A stretch of 32,000 nt of DNA, taken from assembly GCA_016700135.1 (NCBI GenBank), contig CP065004.1, positions 1,260,001 to 1,292,000 of the forward strand, written 5' to 3'. This DNA is from Candidatus Saccharimonadota bacterium (GTDB lineage: Bacteria > Patescibacteriota > Microgenomatia > UBA1406 > GWC2-37-13). The position numbers were made by a program, and so were the translations under genes. Below, in pieces: positions 1,660 to 25,459 of this stretch (its first letter is position 1; each line of letters opens with the position of its first letter). Under the pieces are notes generated by a model. It had not been told where the DNA came from. It was given only the letters and a program-made list of their open reading frames with translations, and did not search any database.

Positions 1660-3915
1660 TCAATATCTTCTGCGGTCATCACGTCGAGGTCCGCGATGAT
1701 CCCGTCGGTCTCCTCCGCGACGATCATCATATCGTCTTCCGCCTCCTCCACCGCGTCTGTCCATGCGGCGCTGATCATGTCGATCAGGAGCTGCACTCAT
1801 ATCAATCTCGACCGGTGTCCCGTCGGGGAGCTGAGTCATCACAAGGTTGATTCTTCCCTGAGAATCAATCTCATGGACTTTTACTTTGACTTTGTCACCG
1901 ACCTGTACGACATCTTCAGGATTTTTAACAAATCCGTTGCTCATTTTTGAGACATGGACTAATCCTTCTTTGCCGGGAAGCACTTCAACGAATGCTCCGA
2001 AAGCCATCAGTCTTTTGACTTCACCGTCAAATTCTTCACCGACTTCTACCTGTCTTATCAAGTTGTTTATCATTTCAAGTGCTTTTGCGACTTTGACCTG
2101 ATCAATACCTGCAACTGTCACAGATCCGTCATCTTCGATATTGATGTCAGTATCCGTAAGTGCGATGATACTCTTGATGGTTTTGCCTCCCGGTCCGATC
2201 ACGGTTCCGATCATATCCTCAGGAAGTTGCAGTGTCTCAATCTTCGGTGCATACTGGGAAATCTCTTTTCGTGGTTCAGAAATTGCTCCGTTCATGACTT
2301 CCAGGATACGAAGTCTTGCTGACTGTGCACGATCAAGTATTTCATCAATCATGGCATCAGTGAGTCCCATGTTCTTCACATCAAGCTGGATCGCAGTCAC
2401 GCCTTCTGTTGTTCCTGTTACTTTGAAGTCCATCTCGCCTGAGAAGTCTTCAATACCCATAATGTCCGTCAGAATGACATATTTATCATCCGATTCTGAC
2501 ATAAGTCCCATCGCAATTCCGGCAACAGGTCTTTTGATCGGTACACCGGCATCCATAAGTGACATAGATGAACCGCAGGTTGATGCCATTGAGGTTGAAC
2601 CGTTTGAAGTCAGAACCTCTGACACGATTCGAATGACATACGGGAACTCTTCTTCTGTCGGGAGAACAGGCAGCAGTGCTTTTTCGGCAAGTGCTCCGTG
2701 TCCGATTTCACGACGATTCGTAAATCCGATTCGTCCGGTTTCACCGACTGAGTATGGCGGGAAGTTATAGTGATGCATGTATCTTTTTTCTTCCTGTCCT
2801 TCAGGTCCGTCAATCAATTGTTCAAGTCCGGGTGCGCCAAGTGTCAATACTGACAGTACCTGGGTAGCGCCTCTTTTGAACAATCCCGTTCCGTGAGTGC
2901 GGGGAAGAATGCCGACTTCTGCTGACAAGGGTCGGATATCATCAATTCCTCGTCCGTCAATACGGACTTTTTCATTGATTGTTTTGCTACGAATTTTATC
3001 CTTTGCAAGATAATCAAAAGCTTCCGCGATTTGTTTGTCGGTGAATTCTTCGCCAGTTTTTTCGACGACTTTCCCGACAAGATCCTTCATCATTGAACCG
3101 TCATCGAATTCACGGTCAGCTTTGTAAGCAACAAGCTTATCAATTTCCTTATCGAAATCATGTTTTAATGTTTCTTTGAGTTTCGGATCAATGAGTGATT
3201 CTGCTGCCTGTTCTTTCGGCATACCGACTTTTTCACGAAGTGTATCCATGAATTCAATCAGCTTCATATTTTCTTTCTTTGCAAGCTGAATTCCTTCCTT
3301 GATAACATCATTAGAAAGTTCTTTTGCCGCAGTTTCGATCATGACGACTTTTTCACGGTTTGACGTGACAAAAAGATCAAGATCAGAGTGCAGTTCTTCT
3401 TCCTGAGTCGGATTAATGATAAAAGATGAATTTCCTTCAGAATCTTTGATCAGTCCGATTTGCGTTGCGGCGACAGGTCCGTTCCACGGAGCGGGTGAAA
3501 GATGTACCCCGACTGCAGATGCGATCGTTGCGAGTACTTCCGGTGCAACGGTATTGTCAACAGACATAAGAGTTGCGACAACCTGCACTTCGCGACGGTA
3601 GGTTTTCGGAAAAAACGGTCGGATTGAGCGGTCAATGATGCGTCCTTTCAGGATTGCTTCATCGGTCGGTTTTCCTTCGCGTTTTACCCAGCGTGAACCT
3701 TTAATAACTCCTCCTGCGTAAAGTTTTTCGACATACTCGACGGAAAGAGGGAAGTAATCAATGTCATTGTTTTCCTTGCCCAGCGTGACCGTGACAAGAA
3801 TACAAGTATCATTCATACGTGCAAACACTGATGTGGTTGCGTTTTGTGCCAGTTTTCCGAACTGGAGTGTTAGTTTATTGCCATCAATTTCGATGGACTC
3901 TTCTAAATATTTCAT
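1660..3915 (-). CDS. pnp: Polynucleotide phosphorylase (PNPase) with an extra Arg/Gly-rich C-terminal tail
   Basis: 751-aa ORF with two RNase PH-like domains, a KH region (GPGGKTIKSI) and an S1 region (GEVKRLMAFGAFVEVLPGKEGLVHVS). It has the classic position downstream of rpsO. Confidence 0.95.
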   Translation of the reverse strand: MKYLEESIEIDGNKLTLQFGKLAQNATTSVFARMNDTCILVTVTLGKENNDIDYFPLSVEYVEKLYAGGVIKGSRWVKREGKPTDEAILKGRIIDRSIRPFFPKTYRREVQVVATLMSVDNTVAPEVLATIASAVGVHLSPAPWNGPVAATQIGLIKDSEGNSSFIINPTQEEELHSDLDLFVTSNREKVVMIETAAKELSNDVIKEGIQLAKKENMKLIEFMDTLREKVGMPKEQAAESLIDPKLKETLKHDFDKEIDKLVAYKADREFDDGSMMKDLVGKVVEKTGEEFTDKQIAEAFDYLAKDKIRSKTINEKVRIDGRGIDDIRPLSAEVGILPRTHGTGLFKRGATQVLSVLTLGAPGLEQLIDGPEGQEEKRYMHHYNFPPYSVGETGRIGFTNRREIGHGALAEKALLPVLPTEEEFPYVIRIVSEVLTSNGSTSMASTCGSSMSLMDAGVPIKRPVAGIAMGLMSESDDKYVILTDIMGIEDFSGEMDFKVTGTTEGVTAIQLDVKNMGLTDAMIDEILDRAQSARLRILEVMNGAISEPRKEISQYAPKIETLQLPEDMIGTVIGPGGKTIKSIIALTDTDINIEDDGSVTVAGIDQVKVAKALEMINNLIRQVEVGEEFDGEVKRLMAFGAFVEVLPGKEGLVHVSKMSNGFVKNPEDVVQVGDKVKVKVHEIDSQGRINLVMTQLPDGTPVEIDMSAAPDRHDQRRMDRRGGGGGRRYDDRRGGDRRDHRGPRRDDRRRY

Positions 3916-9457: not shown

Positions 9458-10576
9458 TGAATAAGTTACGAAAGATATGGCACTCATAGGGAACTAACAT
9501 CTATGAGTAAATGGGGAGGAGATCAGCTTCGAGTAATTAGGAGTTATGACTGGCAGTACAATAGAGATCTTATGAAAAAGATACGATCTCTATCAGACTA
9601 CAATCAGTCAGATGTAGCACAAATCAGAAACGATGTTCTGACATTTGCAGAGAAGTACGGGATACAAGCTGCAGTTGATGCATATGGGATATCACGAAGG
9701 ACATTGTTTCGATGGAGGAAGAGACGGCGAGATTCAGAAGGGCAGTTGGATAGCCTGATACCAGAGACAACCAAGCCAAAGACACCCCGACGTATGGAGA
9801 CTCACCCGAAGGTCATATCCTTTATCAAAGAGATTCGAGAACAATACTTTTGTTTGGGAAAGGAGAAGATCAAGCCCTTACTTGATGAGTATTGCCTACA
9901 GGAAGGAATTTCAACTATATCTGAGTCAACCATTGGAAAAGTGATCAAAAGACACAACCTGCAGCGCAAGACCTACCGGATCTATCACAATCCAGCAAGT
10001 GGCTTTGCAAAACGGAAAGTAAAGTACCGACAGAAGGTCAAGCGGTCTCCCAAGGTGGAAGATACCGGATACATTGAGATTGATACCATCACGAAGTTTG
10101 TACACGGAATCAAGCTGTATGTCTTCAATGCAGTGGACATCAAACTCAAATTCCAGTTCTCCTACGGATACTCAAAACTCAACAGCCGAAACGGTGCTGA
10201 TTTTATGAGAAGACTGGAACTAGTATACCCAATACAAGATGGTATAAAAACCATACAAACAGATAACGGCCTCGAGTATCTGGGAAACTTCCATGACTAT
10301 CTGGAAGAAAACAATATCCCACACCTCTTTATCTACCCCAGATGTCCCAAGATCAATGCCTTTATTGAGCGAGCAAACAGAACACTCCAGGAAGAATTTA
10401 TGAACCCCTACATCTATACCAAGTGGACCGGTATCGGATCATTCAATCGTCACCTTATTGAATACCTCGTCTGGTACAATACAAAGCGAGTTCACAAAAG
10501 CCTGAACAATATTTCACCTATGGATTACCTATTATCTATTTTACCTAAAGAGTGCCATATGTATGGAACTCATACA
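9458..10576 (+). mobile_element. IS481-family insertion sequence, copy 1 (1119 bp, apparently intact)
   Basis: Boundaries come from alignment with the inverted copy at 30183-31301. The imperfect terminal inverted repeats are TGAATAAGTTACGAAAGATATGGCACTC (9458-9485) and the reverse complement of 10550-10576 (TGTATGAGTTCCATACATATGGCACTC). No flanking direct repeat was seen. Confidence 0.85.
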
Positions 10577-10633
10577 ACAAGTATATTTTATCATGTTAAC
10601 ATATTAATATGCAATTCATTGAAAATTCTTTAG
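9503..10633 (+). CDS. IS481-family DDE (rve/integrase core) transposase
   Basis: N-terminal HTH (GISRRTLFRWRK) and DDE region (YIEIDTI ... IQTDNGLEY ... FIERANRTLQEE ... YNTKRVHKSL). The ORF reads 57 nt beyond the right IS end before its stop. The real start may be the ATG at 9572 (MKKIRSL). Confidence 0.85.
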   Translation: MSKWGGDQLRVIRSYDWQYNRDLMKKIRSLSDYNQSDVAQIRNDVLTFAEKYGIQAAVDAYGISRRTLFRWRKRRRDSEGQLDSLIPETTKPKTPRRMETHPKVISFIKEIREQYFCLGKEKIKPLLDEYCLQEGISTISESTIGKVIKRHNLQRKTYRIYHNPASGFAKRKVKYRQKVKRSPKVEDTGYIEIDTITKFVHGIKLYVFNAVDIKLKFQFSYGYSKLNSRNGADFMRRLELVYPIQDGIKTIQTDNGLEYLGNFHDYLEENNIPHLFIYPRCPKINAFIERANRTLQEEFMNPYIYTKWTGIGSFNRHLIEYLVWYNTKRVHKSLNNISPMDYLLSILPKECHMYGTHTTSIFYHVNILICNSLKIL

Positions 10634-10841: not shown

Positions 10842-11556
10842 GGCTCTAGACTAGCACATTAACAATTTGTAATAGTTCATTGTAAAGGATCGATGGGGAT
10901 TTGCTCCATCTCCATTCACACTCTTTCAAGTGTAATGGAAAGTTTTTCTTTACACCATTGAACTTAACGAGACGTCTTTTACAAAAGGACCAGAATGACT
11001 CTATGCCATTGATATGGACCCCTTTTGTATTTGAGAACTCATTTTTCTTGTGATTGATTCTCAAATGTTTGTCATACCCGACATCAACAAGTCCGTTGTA
11101 TCCGCTCCACGAATCTGAATATACAGTACTGTTCAAGTCAATCTTTCCCTTCATAACAGCATGTAGCGTTCTTCTTTTACAGTTTGGAATGATACGAGTA
11201 AATACACGTCCTTGACGCTCATATATCCCAAATACTACCTGCTTAAATGACGTCCCACGACCTCTTTTACTTGACTTGCCTCTCATCCTTCGAGGTCCAA
11301 AGTATGATTCATCAATTTCTATCTCACCACCAACATATCGTTGCATCTGGTGCACTTGGTGATGATATATGAGTTGACGAATATTATTGTAATATTTGTT
11401 GACTGTATTGCGGTTGAGACCCAAAATACCAGAGGTCTGTGTAGCACTCAGATCGTGTGCAAAACACCATAGTATCTTTTTTCTCTTGTATTTTGATATC
11501 GGCCTATTGTTACAAACCATACCTCTAGTTTAGCACTACTCTGCTAGTCTAGAGCC
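10842..11556 (-). mobile_element. IS1595-family (ISXO2-like) insertion sequence, 715 bp
   Basis: Perfect 15-bp terminal inverted repeats: GGCTCTAGACTAGCA at 10842-10856 and its reverse complement at 11542-11556. Flanked by TTAACAA direct repeats, with a single transposase ORF inside. Confidence 0.85.
10846..11520 (-). CDS. IS1595-family DDE transposase
   Basis: 224 aa with IEIDESYFG ... VYSDSWSGY ... INGIESFWSFCKRRL, characteristic of the DDE_Tnp_IS1595 / ISXO2-like family. Its stop codon lies inside the left inverted repeat. Confidence 0.85.
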   Translation of the reverse strand: MVCNNRPISKYKRKKILWCFAHDLSATQTSGILGLNRNTVNKYYNNIRQLIYHHQVHQMQRYVGGEIEIDESYFGPRRMRGKSSKRGRGTSFKQVVFGIYERQGRVFTRIIPNCKRRTLHAVMKGKIDLNSTVYSDSWSGYNGLVDVGYDKHLRINHKKNEFSNTKGVHINGIESFWSFCKRRLVKFNGVKKNFPLHLKECEWRWSKSPSILYNELLQIVNVLV

Positions 11557-12273: not shown

Positions 12274-13117
12274 TAACGGATACACAGAAATGGGAGAAAA
12301 GCTGAAACAGGCAAAAGGCATCATCTTTTCCGATGTTGATGGTGTCTGGCTTGATGAGACAAAAAACTTTGCCTTTCCCGACAATAACAGTCTTGAAGCG
12401 ATTTTAAGGGCACAATCACAAGACTATGTTTTCGTTTTAAATTCAGATACAGGCGGAGAAAGTTTACTGCAGCTTTCACGGGAAATGGGTATCACATCCG
12501 ATCTTTGCATCGCGGAAAACGGCAGTTATATCCAAACAGAAAATGATGTTTGGATGATTCAGGAACCTGATCCGAGAACATTTATGTCCGGACTGAGGAT
12601 ACGGTTTGCAGAGATACTTTCTTCATCTGGAACTGTTTGGCAAGGAGATGCCACAAGAGCCGTTAGAAAACGGGAATTGAAAAACGACTCTCCCCTTTTC
12701 TTGGTAAATACATCAAGACAATGCAGTGTCGGAATTTACGCACGACAAGCCGGGATGACTATTGACAGGGATCTAACAGAAAGTGTTTATCAGACTGTGA
12801 CAAAAGTATGCTCCGATGTGCAAGGTGTCGAAATCTCTCAGTATCCTGAAATAGGCAGCTGTTTGGTCAGGACAACAAACAGACCGTCAAAGGCGGATGC
12901 CGTCTCCCGACTGTTGGAGCTCTCCGGATTTGGCGGACCGTGCTTTATGATCGGAGACAGCATGGCTGATGCTATGAGAAGTCTCGATAAAAGAGTTATC
13001 ACCTGTGCCGTTGGGAATGCATCACCGGAATTGAAAACAAATGCAGATGTTATTAATGAAACGGCAGTTTTGGACAGAAGTACAGCAGAAATTATCAATT
13101 CTATTATTAGTTCATAA
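12260..13117 (+). CDS. HAD-superfamily (subfamily IIB / Cof-like) phosphatase
   Basis: Motif I is IIFSDVDGVWLDE (DxD) and motif IV is MIGDSMADAMR (GDxxxD), with a cap-domain-sized insert between them. It overlaps the upstream gene by 14 nt. Confidence 0.7.
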   Translation: MERLNNGYTEMGEKLKQAKGIIFSDVDGVWLDETKNFAFPDNNSLEAILRAQSQDYVFVLNSDTGGESLLQLSREMGITSDLCIAENGSYIQTENDVWMIQEPDPRTFMSGLRIRFAEILSSSGTVWQGDATRAVRKRELKNDSPLFLVNTSRQCSVGIYARQAGMTIDRDLTESVYQTVTKVCSDVQGVEISQYPEIGSCLVRTTNRPSKADAVSRLLELSGFGGPCFMIGDSMADAMRSLDKRVITCAVGNASPELKTNADVINETAVLDRSTAEIINSIISS

Positions 13118-16926: not shown

Positions 16927-17109
16927 TGGTGGCTGGGGAGAGAGTCGAACTCTCGACCTATCGCTTACCTGCCCGCCGAACTGTGGCTAAGGGGAGAATC
17001 GAACTCCCGACCTAACGCTTATGAAACGTTCGCTCTAACCACTGAGCTACTTAGCCTTTCTCAGGCAGGCGCGGTGAAACGATCGCTCTAACCACTGAGC
17101 TACCCAGCC
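16927..17109 (-). tRNA. Interrupted (outer) tRNA gene: 5' half at 17075-17109, 107-nt insertion at 16968-17074, 3' half at 16927-16967 with encoded CCA. The anticodon is CAT if the loop is rejoined as TTCA|TAA
   Basis: Minus strand reads GGCTGGG TA GCTC AGTGGTTA GAGC G ATCGT TTCA [107 nt] TAA GCGAT AGGTC GAGAG TTCGACT CTCTC CCCAGCC A CCA. The acceptor and anticodon stems pair perfectly across the interruption. Confidence 0.6.
16984..17056 (-). tRNA. Complete 73-nt tRNA with anticodon CAT (elongator Met or Ile2-type; not initiator-like), nested inside the outer tRNA
   Basis: GGCTAAG TA GCTC AGTGGTTA GAGC G AACGT TTCATAA GCGTT AGGTC GGGAG TTCGATT CTCCC CTTAGCC A. It forms a full cloverleaf with a G1-C72 pair and has no encoded CCA. 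Confidence 0.85.
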
Positions 17110-17140: not shown

Positions 17141-17148
17141 ATTATAAT
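17141..17148. promoter_or_regulatory. Palindromic -10-like element ATTATAAT between the divergent tRNA locus and the GT2 gene
   Basis: On the + strand, TATAAT (17143-17148) ends 7 nt before the ATG at 17156. On the - strand, TATAAT (reverse complement of 17141-17146) lies about 31 nt upstream of the outer tRNA 5' end. Confidence 0.4.
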
Positions 17149-19599: not shown

Positions 19600-21033
19600 A
19601 TGAAAAAAAAGGATTTTATCATTCTCTCAATCATTCTTGTTGTAGCTCTTGCTCTGCGTCTTTATAAGATTGATACTCCCCTTGCCGATCTGCATTCATG
19701 GCGTCAGGTTGACACCGCTGCAGTCGCCCGCAATTTTGCCAGGGACGGGATCAATATGCTGAAACCGACCTACGATGATATCTCAAGTATACAGACAGGG
19801 CATGAAAACCCTGAAGGTCTCCGTATGGTCGAATTTCCAATCTATAATGCATTATTTGCGGCAATGTACCGGTATCTGCCGATTACAAGCCTTGAGATAT
19901 ACGGGAGACTGACATCAATATTCTTTTCTCTTATAACCATTGCAGTTCTGTATTATTTTGCGTTGAAGGAAAAAAATAGGACTGCAGCGATAGCTACAGC
20001 TGTAATTTTTTCCGTATTCCCGTATTTTGTATTCTTTTCTCGTGTTATTCTTCCCGAAACGACTGCTGTTTCATTTATGATGCTGGCACTCTTTTTCCTG
20101 TATCATGCCGTAAAGAAAAAAGGTCATGCAATCTTCCTTTTTACCCTCGGAGGTGTATTTTTTGCCATGTCTATACTTACCAAACCAACGACGATTTTTT
20201 ACGGACTTGCTGCTGCATATCTGTTTATTGATGCTTATAAATTTGACGTATTTAAAAGTTGGAAACCGTATTTCTATTTTATTATTGCGCTCATCCCTTT
20301 TGTAGCCTGGCGCGTGTACATCACTCAGTACCCTGAAGGTATTCCTGCTAGTGCTTGGCTTCTCACGACGGTCAATACCTTTGAAGGTCCGAAAGAAATA
20401 TTTTTCCGGCCGGCGTTTTTCCGCTGGATGTTCATGGAGAGAATCGGACTTGCAGTTCTCGGTATTTACGGTGTGGTCTTTTTTATTGTCGGAATCGTGG
20501 GAAAATACAAAAGATTATTTATCCACTCTGTTTTCTTTTCCGGAATGCTGTATCTTTTTACGTTTCAGGGAGGAAATGTACAGCATGAATATTATCAGAC
20601 CATCCTGCTCCCAGCAGTCGCACTGGTATCAGGCGTTGGCCTTGCACAACTTCTTGAGATGCCGGATAAATTTGTCCACAAGTTTATATTGTATCCGACA
20701 CTTTTTACCGTTTTTGCCTTTTCCGTATTGTTTTCCTATTACAAAGTAAAAGATTATTATGTGTACCCCAATGATCTTCCCCGTATAGCCGAACTTATCA
20801 AAATTTTCACTGAACAAGACGATAAAATCGTCACTGACCGCAGCGGTGACACTACTCTTCTCTACCTCGCGGATCGCAAAGGCGCTCCGGCAATCTATAA
20901 ATCACCGTCAGAATTAAAAGGCGCCGGATATAAATATCTTGTTACGACAAATGAAGGGGAAGCACAAAAACTTAAAGACGAAGGATACAGTGTGGTCGTA
21001 GAAAACGAGATGTTTACTATGATTGCGCTTTAA
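19600..21033 (+). CDS. GT39/ArnT-PMT-like (GT-C fold) membrane glycosyltransferase
   Basis: The N-terminal LRLYKIDTPLADLHSWRQVDTAAVARNF region and the polytopic architecture are typical of undecaprenyl/dolichyl-phosphate-sugar-dependent GT-C enzymes. Confidence 0.7.
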   Translation: MKKKDFIILSIILVVALALRLYKIDTPLADLHSWRQVDTAAVARNFARDGINMLKPTYDDISSIQTGHENPEGLRMVEFPIYNALFAAMYRYLPITSLEIYGRLTSIFFSLITIAVLYYFALKEKNRTAAIATAVIFSVFPYFVFFSRVILPETTAVSFMMLALFFLYHAVKKKGHAIFLFTLGGVFFAMSILTKPTTIFYGLAAAYLFIDAYKFDVFKSWKPYFYFIIALIPFVAWRVYITQYPEGIPASAWLLTTVNTFEGPKEIFFRPAFFRWMFMERIGLAVLGIYGVVFFIVGIVGKYKRLFIHSVFFSGMLYLFTFQGGNVQHEYYQTILLPAVALVSGVGLAQLLEMPDKFVHKFILYPTLFTVFAFSVLFSYYKVKDYYVYPNDLPRIAELIKIFTEQDDKIVTDRSGDTTLLYLADRKGAPAIYKSPSELKGAGYKYLVTTNEGEAQKLKDEGYSVVVENEMFTMIAL

Positions 21034-21052
21034 TAATTTCGATACTCCCACC

Positions 21053-22252
21053 ATGAAAATATTGATGCTGACACCGTATCTTCCGTATCCTCCGGCGTCC
21101 GGCGGACAAATCAGAACCCTATATCTTCTTAAGTATCTCGCTCAAAATCATTCCATAACACTTGTCTCCCTGTACAAAGATGAGAATGAAAAGAAGTATG
21201 CAAAACATCTCAAGTCCTACTGTACTGAAATTCATTTGTGCAAAAGGCCAAAAAAACCCTGGCAGCCGAGCAATATCCTGAAAGCGGTTTTTTCCAATCT
21301 GCCGTTTCTTATTGTCCGAAACTATTCTCAGGAAGCGGTACAAAAAATTCAGGAACTGTTGGAAAACAATACCTTTGACGTGATTCATGCTGAGACCTTT
21401 TACATCATGCCTCACATCCCGAAAACCGATGTCCCGATTATTCTGGTAGAACAGACGATCGAATACAAAGTCTATCAACATTACATTGCATCACTCCCCA
21501 AGCTCCTGCGTTTCCCTCTCAATCTTGACATCCTCAAACTAAAGTGCTGGGAAAAGCATTACTGGGAAAAAGCCGATCTGGTAGCTACGGTGTCTGAGTT
21601 TGATAAAAATGAAATCCAGCAAATACTTCCTTCTATTAAGCCCGTCATCATCCCCAACGGAGCAGGTGACGAAATGTTCGTTGACAAACTGCCGGAGAAT
21701 GCAAGTAAGCATCCTCAGCTTCTATTCATGGGCAATTTTTTTTGGCTGCAGAATGTAGAAGCCGCACAATATCTGATATATCAGGTTTTTCCCGAACTCC
21801 ACAAGAAACTTCCCAATCTCGAACTTATTATTGCGGGTCAAAACGTGGGCGAAAAAATCGTCACATCTCATAAAAAAATAAAAATAGTCAATCTTGACCC
21901 CGGTGATGAAAAAACGGTTAAAGACCTGTATCATTCGGCGACAGTGTTTATCGCCCCGATTTTCGGACCGGGAGGAACACGTCTCAAAATACTGGCAAGT
22001 ATGGCAGCGGGTCTTCCCGTCATATCAACTCCCGTCGGTGTCGAAGGTCTGGGAGTTACGGACGGAGAGCATGTCATGATCGCACGGGACCCGCACGAAT
22101 TTGTTATAAAAACGGTCGAGGTAATCAATAACCGGACGCTGTACCATGATATCCAATCAAAGGCATTCAAACATGCAAAACAGAATTTCAGCTGGAAAGC
22201 AATTGCTAAAAAGCTGGAAAAAGTTTATAAAGATGTCATAGACAAATCATAA
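21053..22252 (+). CDS. Family 4 (GT-B) glycosyltransferase
   Basis: MKILMLTPYLPYPPASGGQIR... N-terminus and a GGTRLKILASMAAGLPVISTPVGVEG C-terminal motif. The track start at 21023 overlaps the GT39 stop, so the ATG at 21053 was preferred. Confidence 0.85.
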   Translation: MKILMLTPYLPYPPASGGQIRTLYLLKYLAQNHSITLVSLYKDENEKKYAKHLKSYCTEIHLCKRPKKPWQPSNILKAVFSNLPFLIVRNYSQEAVQKIQELLENNTFDVIHAETFYIMPHIPKTDVPIILVEQTIEYKVYQHYIASLPKLLRFPLNLDILKLKCWEKHYWEKADLVATVSEFDKNEIQQILPSIKPVIIPNGAGDEMFVDKLPENASKHPQLLFMGNFFWLQNVEAAQYLIYQVFPELHKKLPNLELIIAGQNVGEKIVTSHKKIKIVNLDPGDEKTVKDLYHSATVFIAPIFGPGGTRLKILASMAAGLPVISTPVGVEGLGVTDGEHVMIARDPHEFVIKTVEVINNRTLYHDIQSKAFKHAKQNFSWKAIAKKLEKVYKDVIDKS

Positions 22253-22258
22253 CAATCT

Positions 22259-23365
22259 ATGAAAATCGGAATTGATATATCTCAAATTGTGTATAAAGGA
22301 TCAGGTGTAAGCCGTTTCACGGATGGATTGGTCCACGCAATCCTGTCGTATGAAGAGACGCACCACTGGTCATTTTTCTTTTCATCCTTCAGGCAAAAAC
22401 TTGATCAGGCATTGGTAGAACGCATCAAATCAAAAGGGTTTGATCTGTATACCTACCCTTATCCTCCCACGTTTCTTTCAACATTGTTCAATGACTGGCA
22501 CGGGTTTTCCGGAATGATACTCAAGCATAATAAGCGGTTACAAAAACTGAACTGGTTCATCACTTCAGACTGGACGGAACCGCCCGTGCCGACAAAAAAA
22601 GCAACAATCGTCCATGATCTGGTTTTCAAAAAATTTCCGGAGACTGTCCATCCATCCATTCTCAACACTCAGGAAAAGAGGCTGGGTCATGTCGTCCGGG
22701 AATGTGACCTGATCTTTACTGATTCTCATTCCACGGCACAAGACCTTATCTCAGAATATGCCGTTGAAAAAAACAAAATTACAGTAAACTATCCCGGAGT
22801 TGAGACAAGCGAAAAAACGCTCGGAAACGCTGAAGATATTATTGAGAAGTACGGTATTCACAAACCATACATCCTTGCAGTCGGCAAACTGGAACCAAGA
22901 AAAAATATTGAAAGACTCATCAGAGCATTCGGCCAATCATCGACAACGGCACAACTTGTGATTGCCGGACCGAAAGGATGGGGGGAAACAGATGTGCAGC
23001 AGACCGAACACATTGTATTCCTAGGCTTTGTGCCTGATGAAGATCTGGCACTTCTGTATCACAATGCACTCTTTTTCGTGTATCCGTCACTTTACGAAGG
23101 CTTCGGGTATCCGATCATTGAAGCAATGAGATATCAGTGTCCGGTAGCTTCAAGCAGTTCTTCATCCATGGGCGAAATTGCAAAAGATGCAGCGTTTCTT
23201 TTTGATCCTGAGAATGTTCAGGAGATTACTGGAGCAATACAAACGTTATTTGACGACGAAAAACTTCGTGCCGCACTTATCAAAAAAGGGATGACCCGGG
23301 CTGAAAAATTTACGTGGAAAGAGTACTATAATACACTTATCAAACAGTTATCTTCTCACGTATGA
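22259..23365 (+). CDS. Family 4 (GT-B) glycosyltransferase
   Basis: VGKLEPRKN and PSLYEGFGYPIIEAM (EX7E-type motif). Confidence 0.85.
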   Translation: MKIGIDISQIVYKGSGVSRFTDGLVHAILSYEETHHWSFFFSSFRQKLDQALVERIKSKGFDLYTYPYPPTFLSTLFNDWHGFSGMILKHNKRLQKLNWFITSDWTEPPVPTKKATIVHDLVFKKFPETVHPSILNTQEKRLGHVVRECDLIFTDSHSTAQDLISEYAVEKNKITVNYPGVETSEKTLGNAEDIIEKYGIHKPYILAVGKLEPRKNIERLIRAFGQSSTTAQLVIAGPKGWGETDVQQTEHIVFLGFVPDEDLALLYHNALFFVYPSLYEGFGYPIIEAMRYQCPVASSSSSSMGEIAKDAAFLFDPENVQEITGAIQTLFDDEKLRAALIKKGMTRAEKFTWKEYYNTLIKQLSSHV

Positions 23366-24480
23366 TTATCGGCGTTGACGGAAATGAAGCAAATGTCGAG
23401 CATAAAGTCGGTGTTTCCGTATATACTCTCGAGCTTTTGAAATACTTCGCGAAACATGCTGACAAAACGACACAATTTAAAATATTTCTTCGGAATGAAC
23501 CGAATGATATGATGCCTGATGAAGGACCGTATTTTTCCTATGAGATTGTTCCAGGACAAATGCTGTGGTCACAGATATTTCTTCCTTACCATCTCCGTTT
23601 TAAAACAAGGATCGATATTTTTTTTGCTCCGGCACATTATTCACCCCGCTTTTTATCCGTTCCCTTGGTCTTGACAGTGCATGATCTTTCCTACTTCATG
23701 TACCCCAACGAATTTCTGAAAAAGGACTTGTACAAGCTGACGAACTGGACGAAATACTCGATAGACCATGCAAAAACGATAATCGCAGTTTCCAAGACGA
23801 CCAAAAAGGATATTCTGAAATGGTATAAGCTGAAGGATCGAGATGTCCGAGTCATTTATAACGGATTCCGCAAACGTAAACAAAAGAAAACCGATGTTAA
23901 TATCCTCAAAGAATATGAACTGCAAAAAAAGAAATATATCCTCTATGTCGGTACTTTGCAGCCGAGAAAAAATATTCAGACGTTGATTCAAGCGTATGCA
24001 GCATTCAGGAAGGATCATCCCGATTTTAAGCTTGTTTTAGCCGGCAAAAAAGGATGGCTGTTTGATGCGATCTTCCGGGAAGTGCAGTCTCACAATCTCG
24101 AAGAAGATGTAATATTTACCGGATATACCTCCGATGACGGACTGATCGATTTATACAATAATGCTTTCTGTTTCGTGCTTCCCTCTTTTTATGAAGGCTT
24201 CGGGATTCCGATTCTCGAGGCTATGAGCCACAATATTCCGGTCATAAGCTCACATGCATCCAGTCTCCCCGAAATCGGCAGTGAGGCGTGCTTATATTTT
24301 GACCCGCACAGTGCGGATGATCTTCATGAAAAACTTGATGAGATTTACAACGACAAAAATCTCTATCAAAACCTGATAACAGCGGGTAACGCAAGGGTCA
24401 CGGAGTTTTCATGGAGTAAATGTGCAGAGGAGACACTCCAGGCTATTAAAAATACCATAGCTTCCGAACATGAAGTATAA
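23362..24480 (+). CDS. Family 4 (GT-B) glycosyltransferase
   Basis: VGTLQPRKN and PSFYEGFGIPILEAM. ATGA start/stop overlap with the upstream gene. Confidence 0.85.
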   Translation: MIIGVDGNEANVEHKVGVSVYTLELLKYFAKHADKTTQFKIFLRNEPNDMMPDEGPYFSYEIVPGQMLWSQIFLPYHLRFKTRIDIFFAPAHYSPRFLSVPLVLTVHDLSYFMYPNEFLKKDLYKLTNWTKYSIDHAKTIIAVSKTTKKDILKWYKLKDRDVRVIYNGFRKRKQKKTDVNILKEYELQKKKYILYVGTLQPRKNIQTLIQAYAAFRKDHPDFKLVLAGKKGWLFDAIFREVQSHNLEEDVIFTGYTSDDGLIDLYNNAFCFVLPSFYEGFGIPILEAMSHNIPVISSHASSLPEIGSEACLYFDPHSADDLHEKLDEIYNDKNLYQNLITAGNARVTEFSWSKCAEETLQAIKNTIASEHEV

Positions 24481-25459
24481 CATCATCCCGGACGATTTCG
24501 ATCCGCAGCAATTTAATGAAGCGGCACATCATCCTCTTCAGTCCTGGCAGTGGGGCGAAGCGAGGAAAAGCACAGGGACATCAGTTGTCCGTATCGGCGG
24601 GTTTGAAGAAAACAAACTTGAAGAAGTGTTTACAATGTCCTGTCATCCGCTTCCGAAGCTGCCGTGGAAGGTCGGATATATACCCCGTTCTCCGCTTCCG
24701 GGAGAACAGCTGGTCCAGTTTTTGAAAGAATACGCAAAGCAAAACTCAATTTTTTTTATCAAATTTGAACCTGATGTATGTAAAAATGATGCGAACAAGC
24801 TCCCGTCTGATCTTACAAAAGCTCCGCATCCTCTTTTCCCGGCCTGGACTCAAAAACTTGACCTGACGAAATCTGAGGATGAGCTGATGAAGCAGCTGAA
24901 ATCCAAAACCAGATATAATGTCAGGTACGCAGAGAAAAACGGAGTTACGGTAAGGGAAGACTCAACCGATGAAGGATTTGCGAAATTTTCCAAACTGTAT
25001 TTTGATACCGTTGAAAGGCAAACATATTACGGACATAACCGTTCATATCACCAGAAGGTCTGGCAGGCCATGAAAAACGGAATCGCTCACATCCTGATTG
25101 CCGAATATCAGGGTGAGCCGCTTGCTGCATATGAACTGTTTTTCTTTGATCACAAACTCTATTATCCTTACGGGGGATCATCTGATAGACACCGCAACCT
25201 GATGGCATCAAACCTTCTGATGTGGGAGGCGATCCGTTTCGGAAAACGGATGGGAGCGACCGAGTTTGATATGTGGGGTTCCCTTGCTCCGGATTATGAC
25301 AGAAGCAAATCGTGGGCTGGTTTTACCCGTTTTAAAGAAGGATACGGAACTGAATTTTATCAGTTCCAAGGGAGCTATGATTTAGTCGTAAACCCTGTCA
25401 TATATCCTGCCTACACGGTTGTATATGCCATTCGGGACTTGATTCTGAAGCTCACATAA
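24470..25459 (+). CDS. FemAB-family aminoacyl-tRNA-dependent peptidoglycan peptide-bridge transferase
   Basis: LQSWQWGE, KSKTRYNVRYAEKNGV and YGGSSDRHRNLMASNLLMWEAI..GK..G...FDMWG are FemX/FemAB-like motifs. Confidence 0.75.
   Translation: MKYNIIPDDFDPQQFNEAAHHPLQSWQWGEARKSTGTSVVRIGGFEENKLEEVFTMSCHPLPKLPWKVGYIPRSPLPGEQLVQFLKEYAKQNSIFFIKFEPDVCKNDANKLPSDLTKAPHPLFPAWTQKLDLTKSEDELMKQLKSKTRYNVRYAEKNGVTVREDSTDEGFAKFSKLYFDTVERQTYYGHNRSYHQKVWQAMKNGIAHILIAEYQGEPLAAYELFFFDHKLYYPYGGSSDRHRNLMASNLLMWEAIRFGKRMGATEFDMWGSLAPDYDRSKSWAGFTRFKEGYGTEFYQFQGSYDLVVNPVIYPAYTVVYAIRDLILKLT

Follow-up and report, generated by a model that had tools for sequence, protein, structure and literature searches.

A probable mobile cassette that carries a tRNA(CAT) gene and splits the anticodon of a resident tRNA-Met gene in a Patescibacteria bacterium

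The window analyzed here, a stretch of 32,000 nucleotides of contig CP065004.1, belongs to a Microgenomates-like bacterium of the Patescibacteria (CPR, the candidate phyla radiation) and holds, on its minus strand, a tRNA-Met(CAT) gene interrupted by 107 nt in which a second, complete tRNA gene is enclosed. The genes of the window are bacterial (PNPase, MetRS, PBP1, Lon, MgsA, RfbC and riboflavin kinase), and the nearest relatives of the encoded proteins are labelled Woesebacteria or Roizmanbacteria (Patescibacteria/CPR). Read from 17109 down to 16927, the 5' half of the outer tRNA is followed by an arm of 18 nt, an intact tRNA(CAT), an arm of 16 nt and the 3' half of the outer tRNA; the arms and the tRNA between them are referred to below as the cassette. 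A preliminary description of this arrangement, based on the sequence alone, had proposed a helix between the arms, and its strands are included in the following list, in which family A denotes a group of loci with shared cassette ends.

17075..17109, minus strand: 5' half of the outer (resident) tRNA-Met(CAT), positions 1-35, with the GGCTGGG acceptor strand, the D arm, the ATCGT stem strand and the loop bases TTCA.
17057..17074, minus strand: 5' arm of the cassette, CCGCGCCTGCCTGAGAAA, 18 nt, opening with CC(C)GCCTGCC, the end motif of family A; absent from relatives.
16984..17056, minus strand: inner (cargo) tRNA(CAT), 73 nt, a canonical cloverleaf throughout, with no encoded CCA.
16968..16983, minus strand: 3' arm of the cassette, CAGTTCGGCGGGCAGG, 16 nt, with the family A motif (G)CGGGCAGG at its end; absent from relatives.
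16927..16967, minus strand: 3' half of the outer tRNA, with the TAA of the loop, the GCGAT stem strand, the variable loop, the T arm, the CCCAGCC acceptor strand, discriminator A and an encoded CCA.
16968..17074, minus strand: whole cassette, 107 bp, between tRNA positions 35 and 36, without a target-site duplication and with no host bases lost.
17062..17069, minus strand: helix strand of the preliminary description, CCTGCCTG, whose partner is 16968-16975, CGGGCAGG; the core CCTGCC/GGCAGG is the conserved family A pairing.
17141..17146, minus strand: TATAAT hexamer, situated 32 nt upstream of where the outer tRNA starts and kept in the leaders of relatives; a candidate -10 element for the resident promoter, from which both tRNAs would be expressed.

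The inner tRNA was identified as tRNA-Met(CAT) by ARAGORN and matched Rfam family RF00005 at 73.3 bits, and each of the two programs called only this inner tRNA and not the outer one. The outer halves nevertheless pair with each other across the insert (acceptor stem 7/7, anticodon stem 5/5), and the joined outer tRNA would read GGCUGGG...UUCAUAA...CCCAGCCACCA. Outer and inner 5' halves on the one hand, and 3' halves on the other, are direct repeats with 85-88% identity (88% for the 5' halves). The two tRNAs differ by four compensatory stem-pair changes and one T-loop base; since these changes are compensated, the inner tRNA is not a copy error. In the insert, an Rfam scan at the gathering and E<=1 thresholds returned RF00005 only, with no ribozyme and no other RNA family. 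A promoter scan found no two-hexamer site on the minus strand and none inside the cassette, and no further copies of the arm motif were present in the window.

Folding of 16927-17109 without constraints gave, as minimum-energy structure, the outer cloverleaf with an extended anticodon arm and the inner cloverleaf, at -80.5 kcal/mol (z = -4.9), just as the preliminary description had predicted. The complementarity on which that prediction was built was also confirmed, with CCTGCCTG (17069..17062) pairing to CGGGCAGG (16975..16968) by 7 Watson-Crick pairs and 1 G-U pair in a helix that abuts the 3' junction. In the ensemble an arm helix formed with a probability of about 1, but the register proposed previously accounted for only about 0.001 and cost +5 kcal/mol; the favoured register, CC/GG plus GCCUGCC/GGCGGGC, is shifted from it by four bases. 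Two registers exist because the cassette ends are (CCYG)n/(CRGG)n-like. Across 13 members of family A, the CCTGCC/GGCAGG core was paired in 97.4% of cells versus 82% for the other register, with one compensatory change in the 13 loci and a mostly invariant sequence.

The arm-arm duplex reached -19.4 kcal/mol, compared to -10.8 for shuffled arms (z = -2.8, p ~0.013), a value which is modest taken alone and becomes decisive when nested loci are set against ordinary tRNAs: the arm z was below -2 in 48 of 59 nested loci (median -3.4), with a median of 0 for 110 ordinary tRNAs of the same contigs. The idea that the arms represent an ordinary leader/trailer pairing of CPR tRNAs was therefore rejected. 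Complementary arms were present at the homologous loci checked, so that neither a missing helix in the full-length fold nor a lack of arms in homologues, the two sequence-level findings that would have spoken against the preliminary description, was encountered. The flanks of the outer tRNAs had a median arm z of about 0; outer tRNAs are thus in general not former arm-flanked cassettes themselves, and the exceptions proved to be multi-level nests.

Seven syntenic contigs (L184-L190; L numbers denote loci and contigs throughout) were located through homologues of the adjacent riboflavin kinase, which is 82-90% identical in these relatives, the shared gene order being GT2 - tRNA - flavokinase - RfbC - MgsA. 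Six of the seven carry one uninterrupted tRNA-Met(CAT), and L190, which ends inside the gene, has the same uninterrupted anticodon loop. In L184-L189, TTCA|TAA of the window (the bar marking the junction) is read as TTCATAA. The joined outer halves were identical to the uninterrupted tRNA of L184-L186 at 74 of 76 positions, the inner tRNA at 66 of 73. The 46-nt leader is identical between the window and L184/L186, and the spacer is 107-109 nt shorter than that of the window in L184, L186, L187 and L188, those of L185 and L189 having other indels. While the exon junction had previously been considered impossible to fix from the sequence, the uninterrupted gene of the relatives places the insert exactly between A35 and T36. 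The outer gene is therefore the resident, the 107 nt are a recent and exact insertion, and the anticodon is CAT. This is a presence/absence polymorphism at an identical site without target duplication, as in homing elements. The cargo appears to be a tRNA of the same type, derived from a relative that is somewhat more distant.

In order to find further loci of this type, one genome per GTDB species was scanned with a pattern of two D arms spaced 20-50 nt apart. ARAGORN in intron mode missed the outer tRNA and gave unreliable calls, and hence a splice-out scan and fixed-frame parsing were used. This species scan revealed at least 9 candidate nested loci, of which at least 8 were of the type seen in the window, mostly with Patescibacteria labels: Kerfeldbacteria, Paceibacterota, Parcubacteria, two Saccharibacteria, a 'Patescibacteria group' metagenome-assembled genome (MAG), one 'bacterium' and one genome labelled Pseudomonadales by its submitter. 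L039, the remaining candidate among the matches listed, is a plain duplication. More interrupted or decayed cases appeared among further matches in Woesebacteria, Patescibacteria and MAGs labelled Pseudomonadales or Gammaproteobacteria. The strict pattern in metagenomes gave 63 nested loci. Altogether, more than 50 distinct nested loci were obtained and, where the source genome was labelled, most were from Patescibacteria. The isotypes comprise Thr (CGT, GGT, TGT), Met-type CAT, Val (TAC, CAC, GAC) and Ile (TAT). Of 53 distinct loci, 31 regain a 7-nt loop after a single excision, and in these the inner and outer anticodons are equal; in the other 22, no single excision gives a 7-nt loop with the inner anticodon.

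Several loci are nested more deeply. Three tRNA-Ile(TAT) genes lie within one another in L172/L173, as confirmed by peeling off successive levels, and in L172 (minus strand, ~3060-3520) all three are intact and still foldable. L166 (Thr) reads as a three-level nest, and L004 includes an additional decayed 3' half. Upstream of 5309 (plus strand) in L154, at least 4 tandem units, each consisting of a tRNA 5' half and a 5' arm, precede an intact tRNA-Thr that is followed by a single 3' half; this could reflect repeat expansion or an assembly problem. Outside the Patescibacteria, L016, L075, L114 and L039/L142 comprise partial internal tandem duplications in tRNA-Ala genes as well as a Bryobacteraceae tRNA-Thr between identical half copies with direct repeats GATTTATAGTCGTT; complementary arms are missing from these loci, which seem to represent a phenomenon of another kind.

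The ends of the inserts fall into families. The window belongs to family A, with ends of the form exon|CC(C)GCCTGCC ... (G)CGGGCAGG|exon, a motif common to at least 13 loci. The inverted repeats of the cassette are imperfect, 16-18 bp long, and have GC-rich conserved ends, CC(C)GCCTGCC ... GGCGGGCAGG. Family A is hosted by Thr, Met and Val tRNAs at sites 30/31, 35/36 and 37/38 (with 26/27 as a further position among the nested loci), and its 5' flanks differ (TTCA, TTCG, TTTG, TACA, CACA, ACTC). Family B has the ends TTCA-CCCC...GGGG-CAAG, and its inserts turn a host loop X-CA-Y into X-TTCA[CCCC...GGGG]CAAG-Y, with two extra bases relative to the uninterrupted TTCATAA of L205/L206; such inserts, which are not clean, were found in L170 (4303-4490), L203, L204, L124, L127, L155, L161 and L178. 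Family C (L035, L129/L144, L137, L148, L168, L172, L175, L181) shows in every tRNA-Ile(TAT) nest an extra hairpin with a stem of 5-8 bp, conserved in structure and variable in sequence, which separates the 3' arm from a second near-copy of the anticodon loop (..ATAA). Family D inserts leave no loop remnant.

Relative to the tRNA, the ends also occur as exact reverse complements, for family A in L004/L171 and for family B in L147, L121 and L207, where the four-base ends read CTTG...TGAA. That the end sequences are kept when flipped points to the recognition of DNA, duplex or single-stranded, rather than to an RNA signal. Similarly, the arm helices have no excess of G-U pairs over A-C mismatches (22 vs 40), that is, no signature of a sense-strand RNA. 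On both grounds the arms, which had been proposed to form a processing route, look primarily like the terminal inverted repeats of a DNA element rather than an evolved RNA-processing signal. The feature typical of miniature inverted-repeat transposable elements (MITEs), terminal inverted repeats common to a family of short non-coding elements, is present. Judged by their sequence, joined cassette ends would form a hairpin with a loop of four or five bases and the junction at the loop edge (GGCAGG|CCCG.CCTGCC and ...GGGG.CAAG|CCCC..., with GGCAGG|CCGCG.CCTGCC as the window version), and the junction of a cassette circle would read GGCAGG|CCCGCCTGCC.

Cargo-less forms were also seen. In L085 (6895-7100), a 20-nt palindrome, CCTGCCTGCCGGCGGGCAGG, made up of family A ends only, lies in the T stem of the interrupted outer tRNA, which likewise agrees with recognition at the DNA level, and a second short insert of ~21 nt is located in the outer T loop of L042 (Woesebacteria, minus strand, ~3060-3330). 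No short cargo-less hairpin inserts were detected in otherwise intact tRNAs within 1.3 Mb, L085 and L042, both inside interrupted outers, being the only cases. An intergenic perfect palindrome with the family A motif, GTGCCGCCTGCCTGC...GCAGGCAGGCGGCAC, occurs at 6187-6224 of L130, with no tRNA adjacent to it.

With regard to the fate of the outer copies, several states were found at the initiator-tRNA ... PheS locus: the outer type alone and uninterrupted in L205 and L206, nested genes in L170, L203 and L204, the inner type alone in L202, and reversed roles in L207, where the former resident is reduced to a 10-nt stump plus arm. Outers were lost or decayed in L202, L207, L085, L074 and L048. 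In locus pairs at least 95% identical, 13 substitutions fell in outers and 0 in inners, and disruptive stem changes among related loci numbered 17 in outers and 1 in inners. From these sequence comparisons, the outer copies appear dispensable. Two elongator-like tRNA(CAT) types, with an identical body (nt 8-65) and four different acceptor pairs (GGCTGCA vs GCCGATA), replace or enclose each other at one locus (L170/L202/L205/L207; L007, L124, L178). The T loop TCCAATT, with C at position 55, is common to the uninterrupted resident tRNA(CAT) of L206 and to the outers of L170 and L126, and in L206 (1-912 and 871-1186) a large serine recombinase gene ends beside the cluster of tRNA-Asp, initiator tRNA and tRNA(CAT).

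Taken together, we consider it probable that the insert is a mobile DNA cassette, composed of a functional tRNA(CAT) and flanking inverted repeats, which was recently inserted with base precision at position 35/36 of the resident tRNA-Met(CAT) of this Patescibacteria bacterium. Insertion at the DNA level would split the resident gene inside its anticodon and yet supply its own replacement. The composite gene would presumably be transcribed from the resident promoter; in the transcript, the outer halves would pair with each other, as would the arms, and shut off the inner sequence, so that the cargo would fold on its own as a normal cloverleaf. The inner tRNA could then be released by RNase P together with an RNase Z-type 3' enzyme, as their known recognition of the tRNA shape suggests; the latter is proposed because the inner tRNA encodes no CCA. 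Outer halves with arm tails would be by-products, and the outer gene would be a relic, later decayed or deleted. The cargo would thereby become the new resident and be open to re-invasion, which would give rise to nested 'Russian dolls'. Candidate routes of insertion are a homing-like copying into empty alleles and a recombinase or transposase that recognizes hairpin ends and acts in trans. The match between cargo and target anticodons could come from homology-guided targeting or from a survival filter, in which single-copy tRNA genes in the genome would leave only a matching replacement viable.

Several observations weigh against this interpretation. Set against the empty site, the window insert has no target-site duplication, an uncommon condition among inverted-repeat transposons, and neither a mobilising enzyme nor a transposition intermediate was identified. 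Perfect folding is still possible for most outers (46 of 52 by a 7/7 acceptor stem, 48 of 52 by the T stem); foldable outers, the intact levels of L172 and the 31 clean inserts fit a recent insertion but equally fit a spliced intron. Furthermore, an outer copy had to have conserved D arms and T loops in order to be matched by the search patterns, so that decayed outers are under-sampled and intact ones over-sampled. Cargo that matches the host, whether Thr, Met, Val or Ile, is associated with the same end families, which a mobile cassette does not readily explain. Finally, the GGC../GCC.. pairs of CAT tRNAs might be Met and Ile2, in which case the inner tRNA could not replace the outer one and the cost of the insertion would be different.

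A number of known mobility systems were compared with the junctions. An element derived from IS200/IS605 (HUH) was rejected: the tetranucleotide of the 5' flank is not fixed, and the arms pair together, neither being a hairpin by itself. Integrase-mediated integration into a tRNA gene was likewise dismissed, in view of an insert of only 107 bp with a complete tRNA and of the nearest integrase or transposase open reading frames (ORFs) lying more than 5 kb away and being of ordinary insertion sequence (IS) types. A self-encoded mobility protein such as a homing endonuclease was not found, 107 nt being too short to hold an ORF. For the family B junction, in which CA of the host is replaced by TTCA...CAAG, serine-recombinase, target-duplication and HUH models were tried and none fits; nor does an inverted-repeat transposon with target duplication, a fixed-target HUH element or a serine-recombinase crossover fit all junctions. 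Two scans of viral contigs yielded tRNA arrays and one doubtful flanked tRNA (L200), with no convincing phage delivery. In L200 (IMGVR_UViG_3300033412_000006), a stand-alone tRNA-Lys(CTT) at ~12630-12730 of the minus strand lies between CCTGCCCG and CGGGCAGG, and could be either a free cassette akin to family A or a match that arose by chance in GC-rich DNA.

A different reading, which we regard as unlikely, takes the insert for a true bacterial tRNA intron, protein-dependent and of a new type, in which a tRNA happens to be included; inner and outer tRNA would both be matured. After excision of the insert by RNase P and RNase Z, or by a nuclease acting on the terminal helix, an RNA ligase would connect A35 with U36, which would yield two tRNA-Met per transcript; such an element could still be mobile, like group I introns. 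The exactness of the insertion suits this proposal, as excision restores a perfect tRNA with the loop UUCAUAA, and so do the clean inserts in 31 of 53 loci, the mostly intact outer stems with 45 compensatory events between loci, the three intact levels of L172 and the conserved terminal helix. In one register, the insert opens a helix right at the 5' junction and terminates 4 nt beyond this helix, resembling an acceptor stem with an NCCA tail, which could guide RNase P. These points are countered by the absence of a bulge-helix-bulge motif and of a ribozyme, and by end motifs in both orientations, which make the RNA sequences differ among loci. Inserts of families B and D cannot be removed to leave a 7-nt loop, outers are lost or decayed in the five loci named above, the recent substitutions of outers are disruptive, and the arms show no bias of G-U over A-C. 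In the 32-kb window, no EndA-type splicing endonuclease or ligase gene was seen among 20 ORFs scanned. We give rather little credence to the broader proposition that Patescibacteria possess a protein-based tRNA splicing without ribozyme or bulge-helix-bulge, in which outer halves are religated and nested genes are functional 'polycistronic' tRNAs with two (or three) tRNAs each.

The preliminary description had likened the outer halves to a split tRNA that would be trimmed and ligated. This does not agree with the lack of a bulge-helix-bulge, with 22 of 53 loci not being cleanly excisable or with the damage and loss of outers, although at the window locus, which is a clean insertion, joining of the halves is possible. 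An archaeal-style disrupted tRNA, following a bulge-helix-bulge or split logic with an EndA-like endonuclease and RtcB acquired by CPR bacteria, is in our view very improbable. The non-canonical insert positions and the second short inserts of L042/L085 resemble the multi-intron tRNAs of Thermoproteales, and the complementary arms are reminiscent of the paired leaders in split tRNAs. However, a hand test with the fixed junction agreed with the preliminary description, in which no canonical bulge-helix-bulge could be found, since neither the canonical nor a relaxed form fits the window, L101 or L085. In particular, exon bases 30-33 (GTTT), which should form the central helix, cannot pair with intron n-5..n-2 (GGCA); for none of the three loci is it possible to draw 3-nt bulges with 4 bp between them, and in their place the predicted structures show a 1-nt bulge together with a 2x1 internal loop. 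Moreover, the genome context is bacterial, and the halves are not at separate loci, being 107 nt apart on one strand and presumably in one transcription unit.

We attach hardly any probability to a local duplication, recombination scar or mis-assembly of two paralogous tRNA-Met genes without mobility: although both pairs of halves are direct repeats with 85-88% identity and unrelated partial tRNA duplications are known in other phyla (L016, L039, L114), the same architecture, non-tRNA arms and shared ends recur in dozens of independent assemblies from different projects, and the insert boundary is base-exact against seven related contigs, so that recurrence and base-exact polymorphism exclude an artefact or simple duplication. 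A self-splicing group I/II intron was discarded outright, the 107 nt including a 73-nt tRNA and Rfam showing RF00005 only, with no ribozyme core.

A group I/II ribozyme core is typically longer than 200 nt, and mobile group I introns have a homing cycle, with presence or absence at the same site in relatives and no target duplication. Like group I introns, the cassette sits in the anticodon loop of a bacterial tRNA, and its patchy spread suggests repeated gain, decay and loss. Bacterial examples are found in cyanobacterial tRNA-Leu(UAA) and tRNA-fMet and in Azoarcus tRNA-Ile (cited in PMC8450103). Unlike these, the cassette has 107 nt, lacks a ribozyme core and a homing endonuclease gene, carries a tRNA with the same anticodon and lies inside the anticodon (35/36), and self-splicing is not plausible. 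Archaeal bulge-helix-bulge introns, the split tRNAs of Nanoarchaeum and the permuted tRNAs of Cyanidioschyzon have been reviewed (PMC4033280, PMC3978253). The nested loci share with archaeal introns and split tRNAs the interruption at canonical and non-canonical positions, complementary sequences that unite the halves, and similar insert sequences in different tRNA genes, which in the archaeal case suggest intron transposition. They differ from them in being bacterial, with no bulge-helix-bulge motif, contiguous halves, a full tRNA in the insert and apparently dispensable outers.

Phages and integrative elements are reported (Campbell; Williams 2002) to enter tRNA genes via tyrosine integrases and to carry a copy of the displaced tRNA segment. 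Similarly, the cassette targets the anticodon region of a tRNA gene (the anticodon or T-loop region in the case of integrative elements) and compensates with tRNA sequence, with a match between element and target. In contrast, integrative elements comprise kilobases, encode an integrase and replace the 3' part of the gene, leaving one intact hybrid tRNA and a distant 3' fragment, whereas nested loci hold a whole tRNA and the resident gene stays broken. With MITEs and REP-like elements, the cassettes have in common a very short, non-coding make-up, terminal inverted repeats, end families, a cargo-less palindrome (L085) and presumably mobilisation in trans; they depart from them by the tRNA cargo, the lack of target-site duplication, the homology between target and cargo and an apparently low copy number per genome. 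As in twintrons (introns within introns), nesting comes about when a site of a given kind is invaded repeatedly. Interrupted rRNA genes are already known in CPR bacteria (PMC11270868), with long inserts that are of group I/II type or encode proteins, and that work makes no mention of tRNA. No bacterial tRNA-in-tRNA genes were found described in the full-text literature searched, including the tRNAscan-SE 2.0 paper, although its coverage was incomplete and an earlier description is possible.

If the mobile cassette interpretation is correct, it would constitute a new kind of selfish or self-compensating mobile element, which breaks an essential gene while supplying the replacement. By bringing this replacement along, the cassette could spread cheaply and bring about, in the smallest of bacterial genomes, a horizontal turnover of tRNA genes. 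It would also account for loci reported as a single tRNA by standard finders, in which a second, interrupted gene is overlooked, and would predict waves of tRNA allele replacement in Patescibacteria as well as an insertion enzyme acting on the anticodon region of tRNA genes. Should the insert instead be an intron, bacteria would have an intron class and a tRNA splicing route new to that domain. Under either reading, the loci provide concrete substrates, namely a 183-nt transcript and a defined empty site.

Elsewhere in the window, two transposase genes lie next to each other between the genes for D-Tyr-tRNA deacylase and purine phosphorylase, one at 9503-10633 (plus strand) for an rve-type integrase with helix-turn-helix domains and one at 10846-11520 (minus strand) of the IS1595-type DDE group. 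In the relative L189, the deacylase gene is close to MgsA without these two transposases, and they therefore look like IS elements recently acquired by the lineage that also gained the cassette. A FemAB-family ORF (aminoacyl-tRNA-dependent peptidyl transferase family) at 24470-25459 (plus strand) ends the run of glycosyltransferase genes at 19600-24480.

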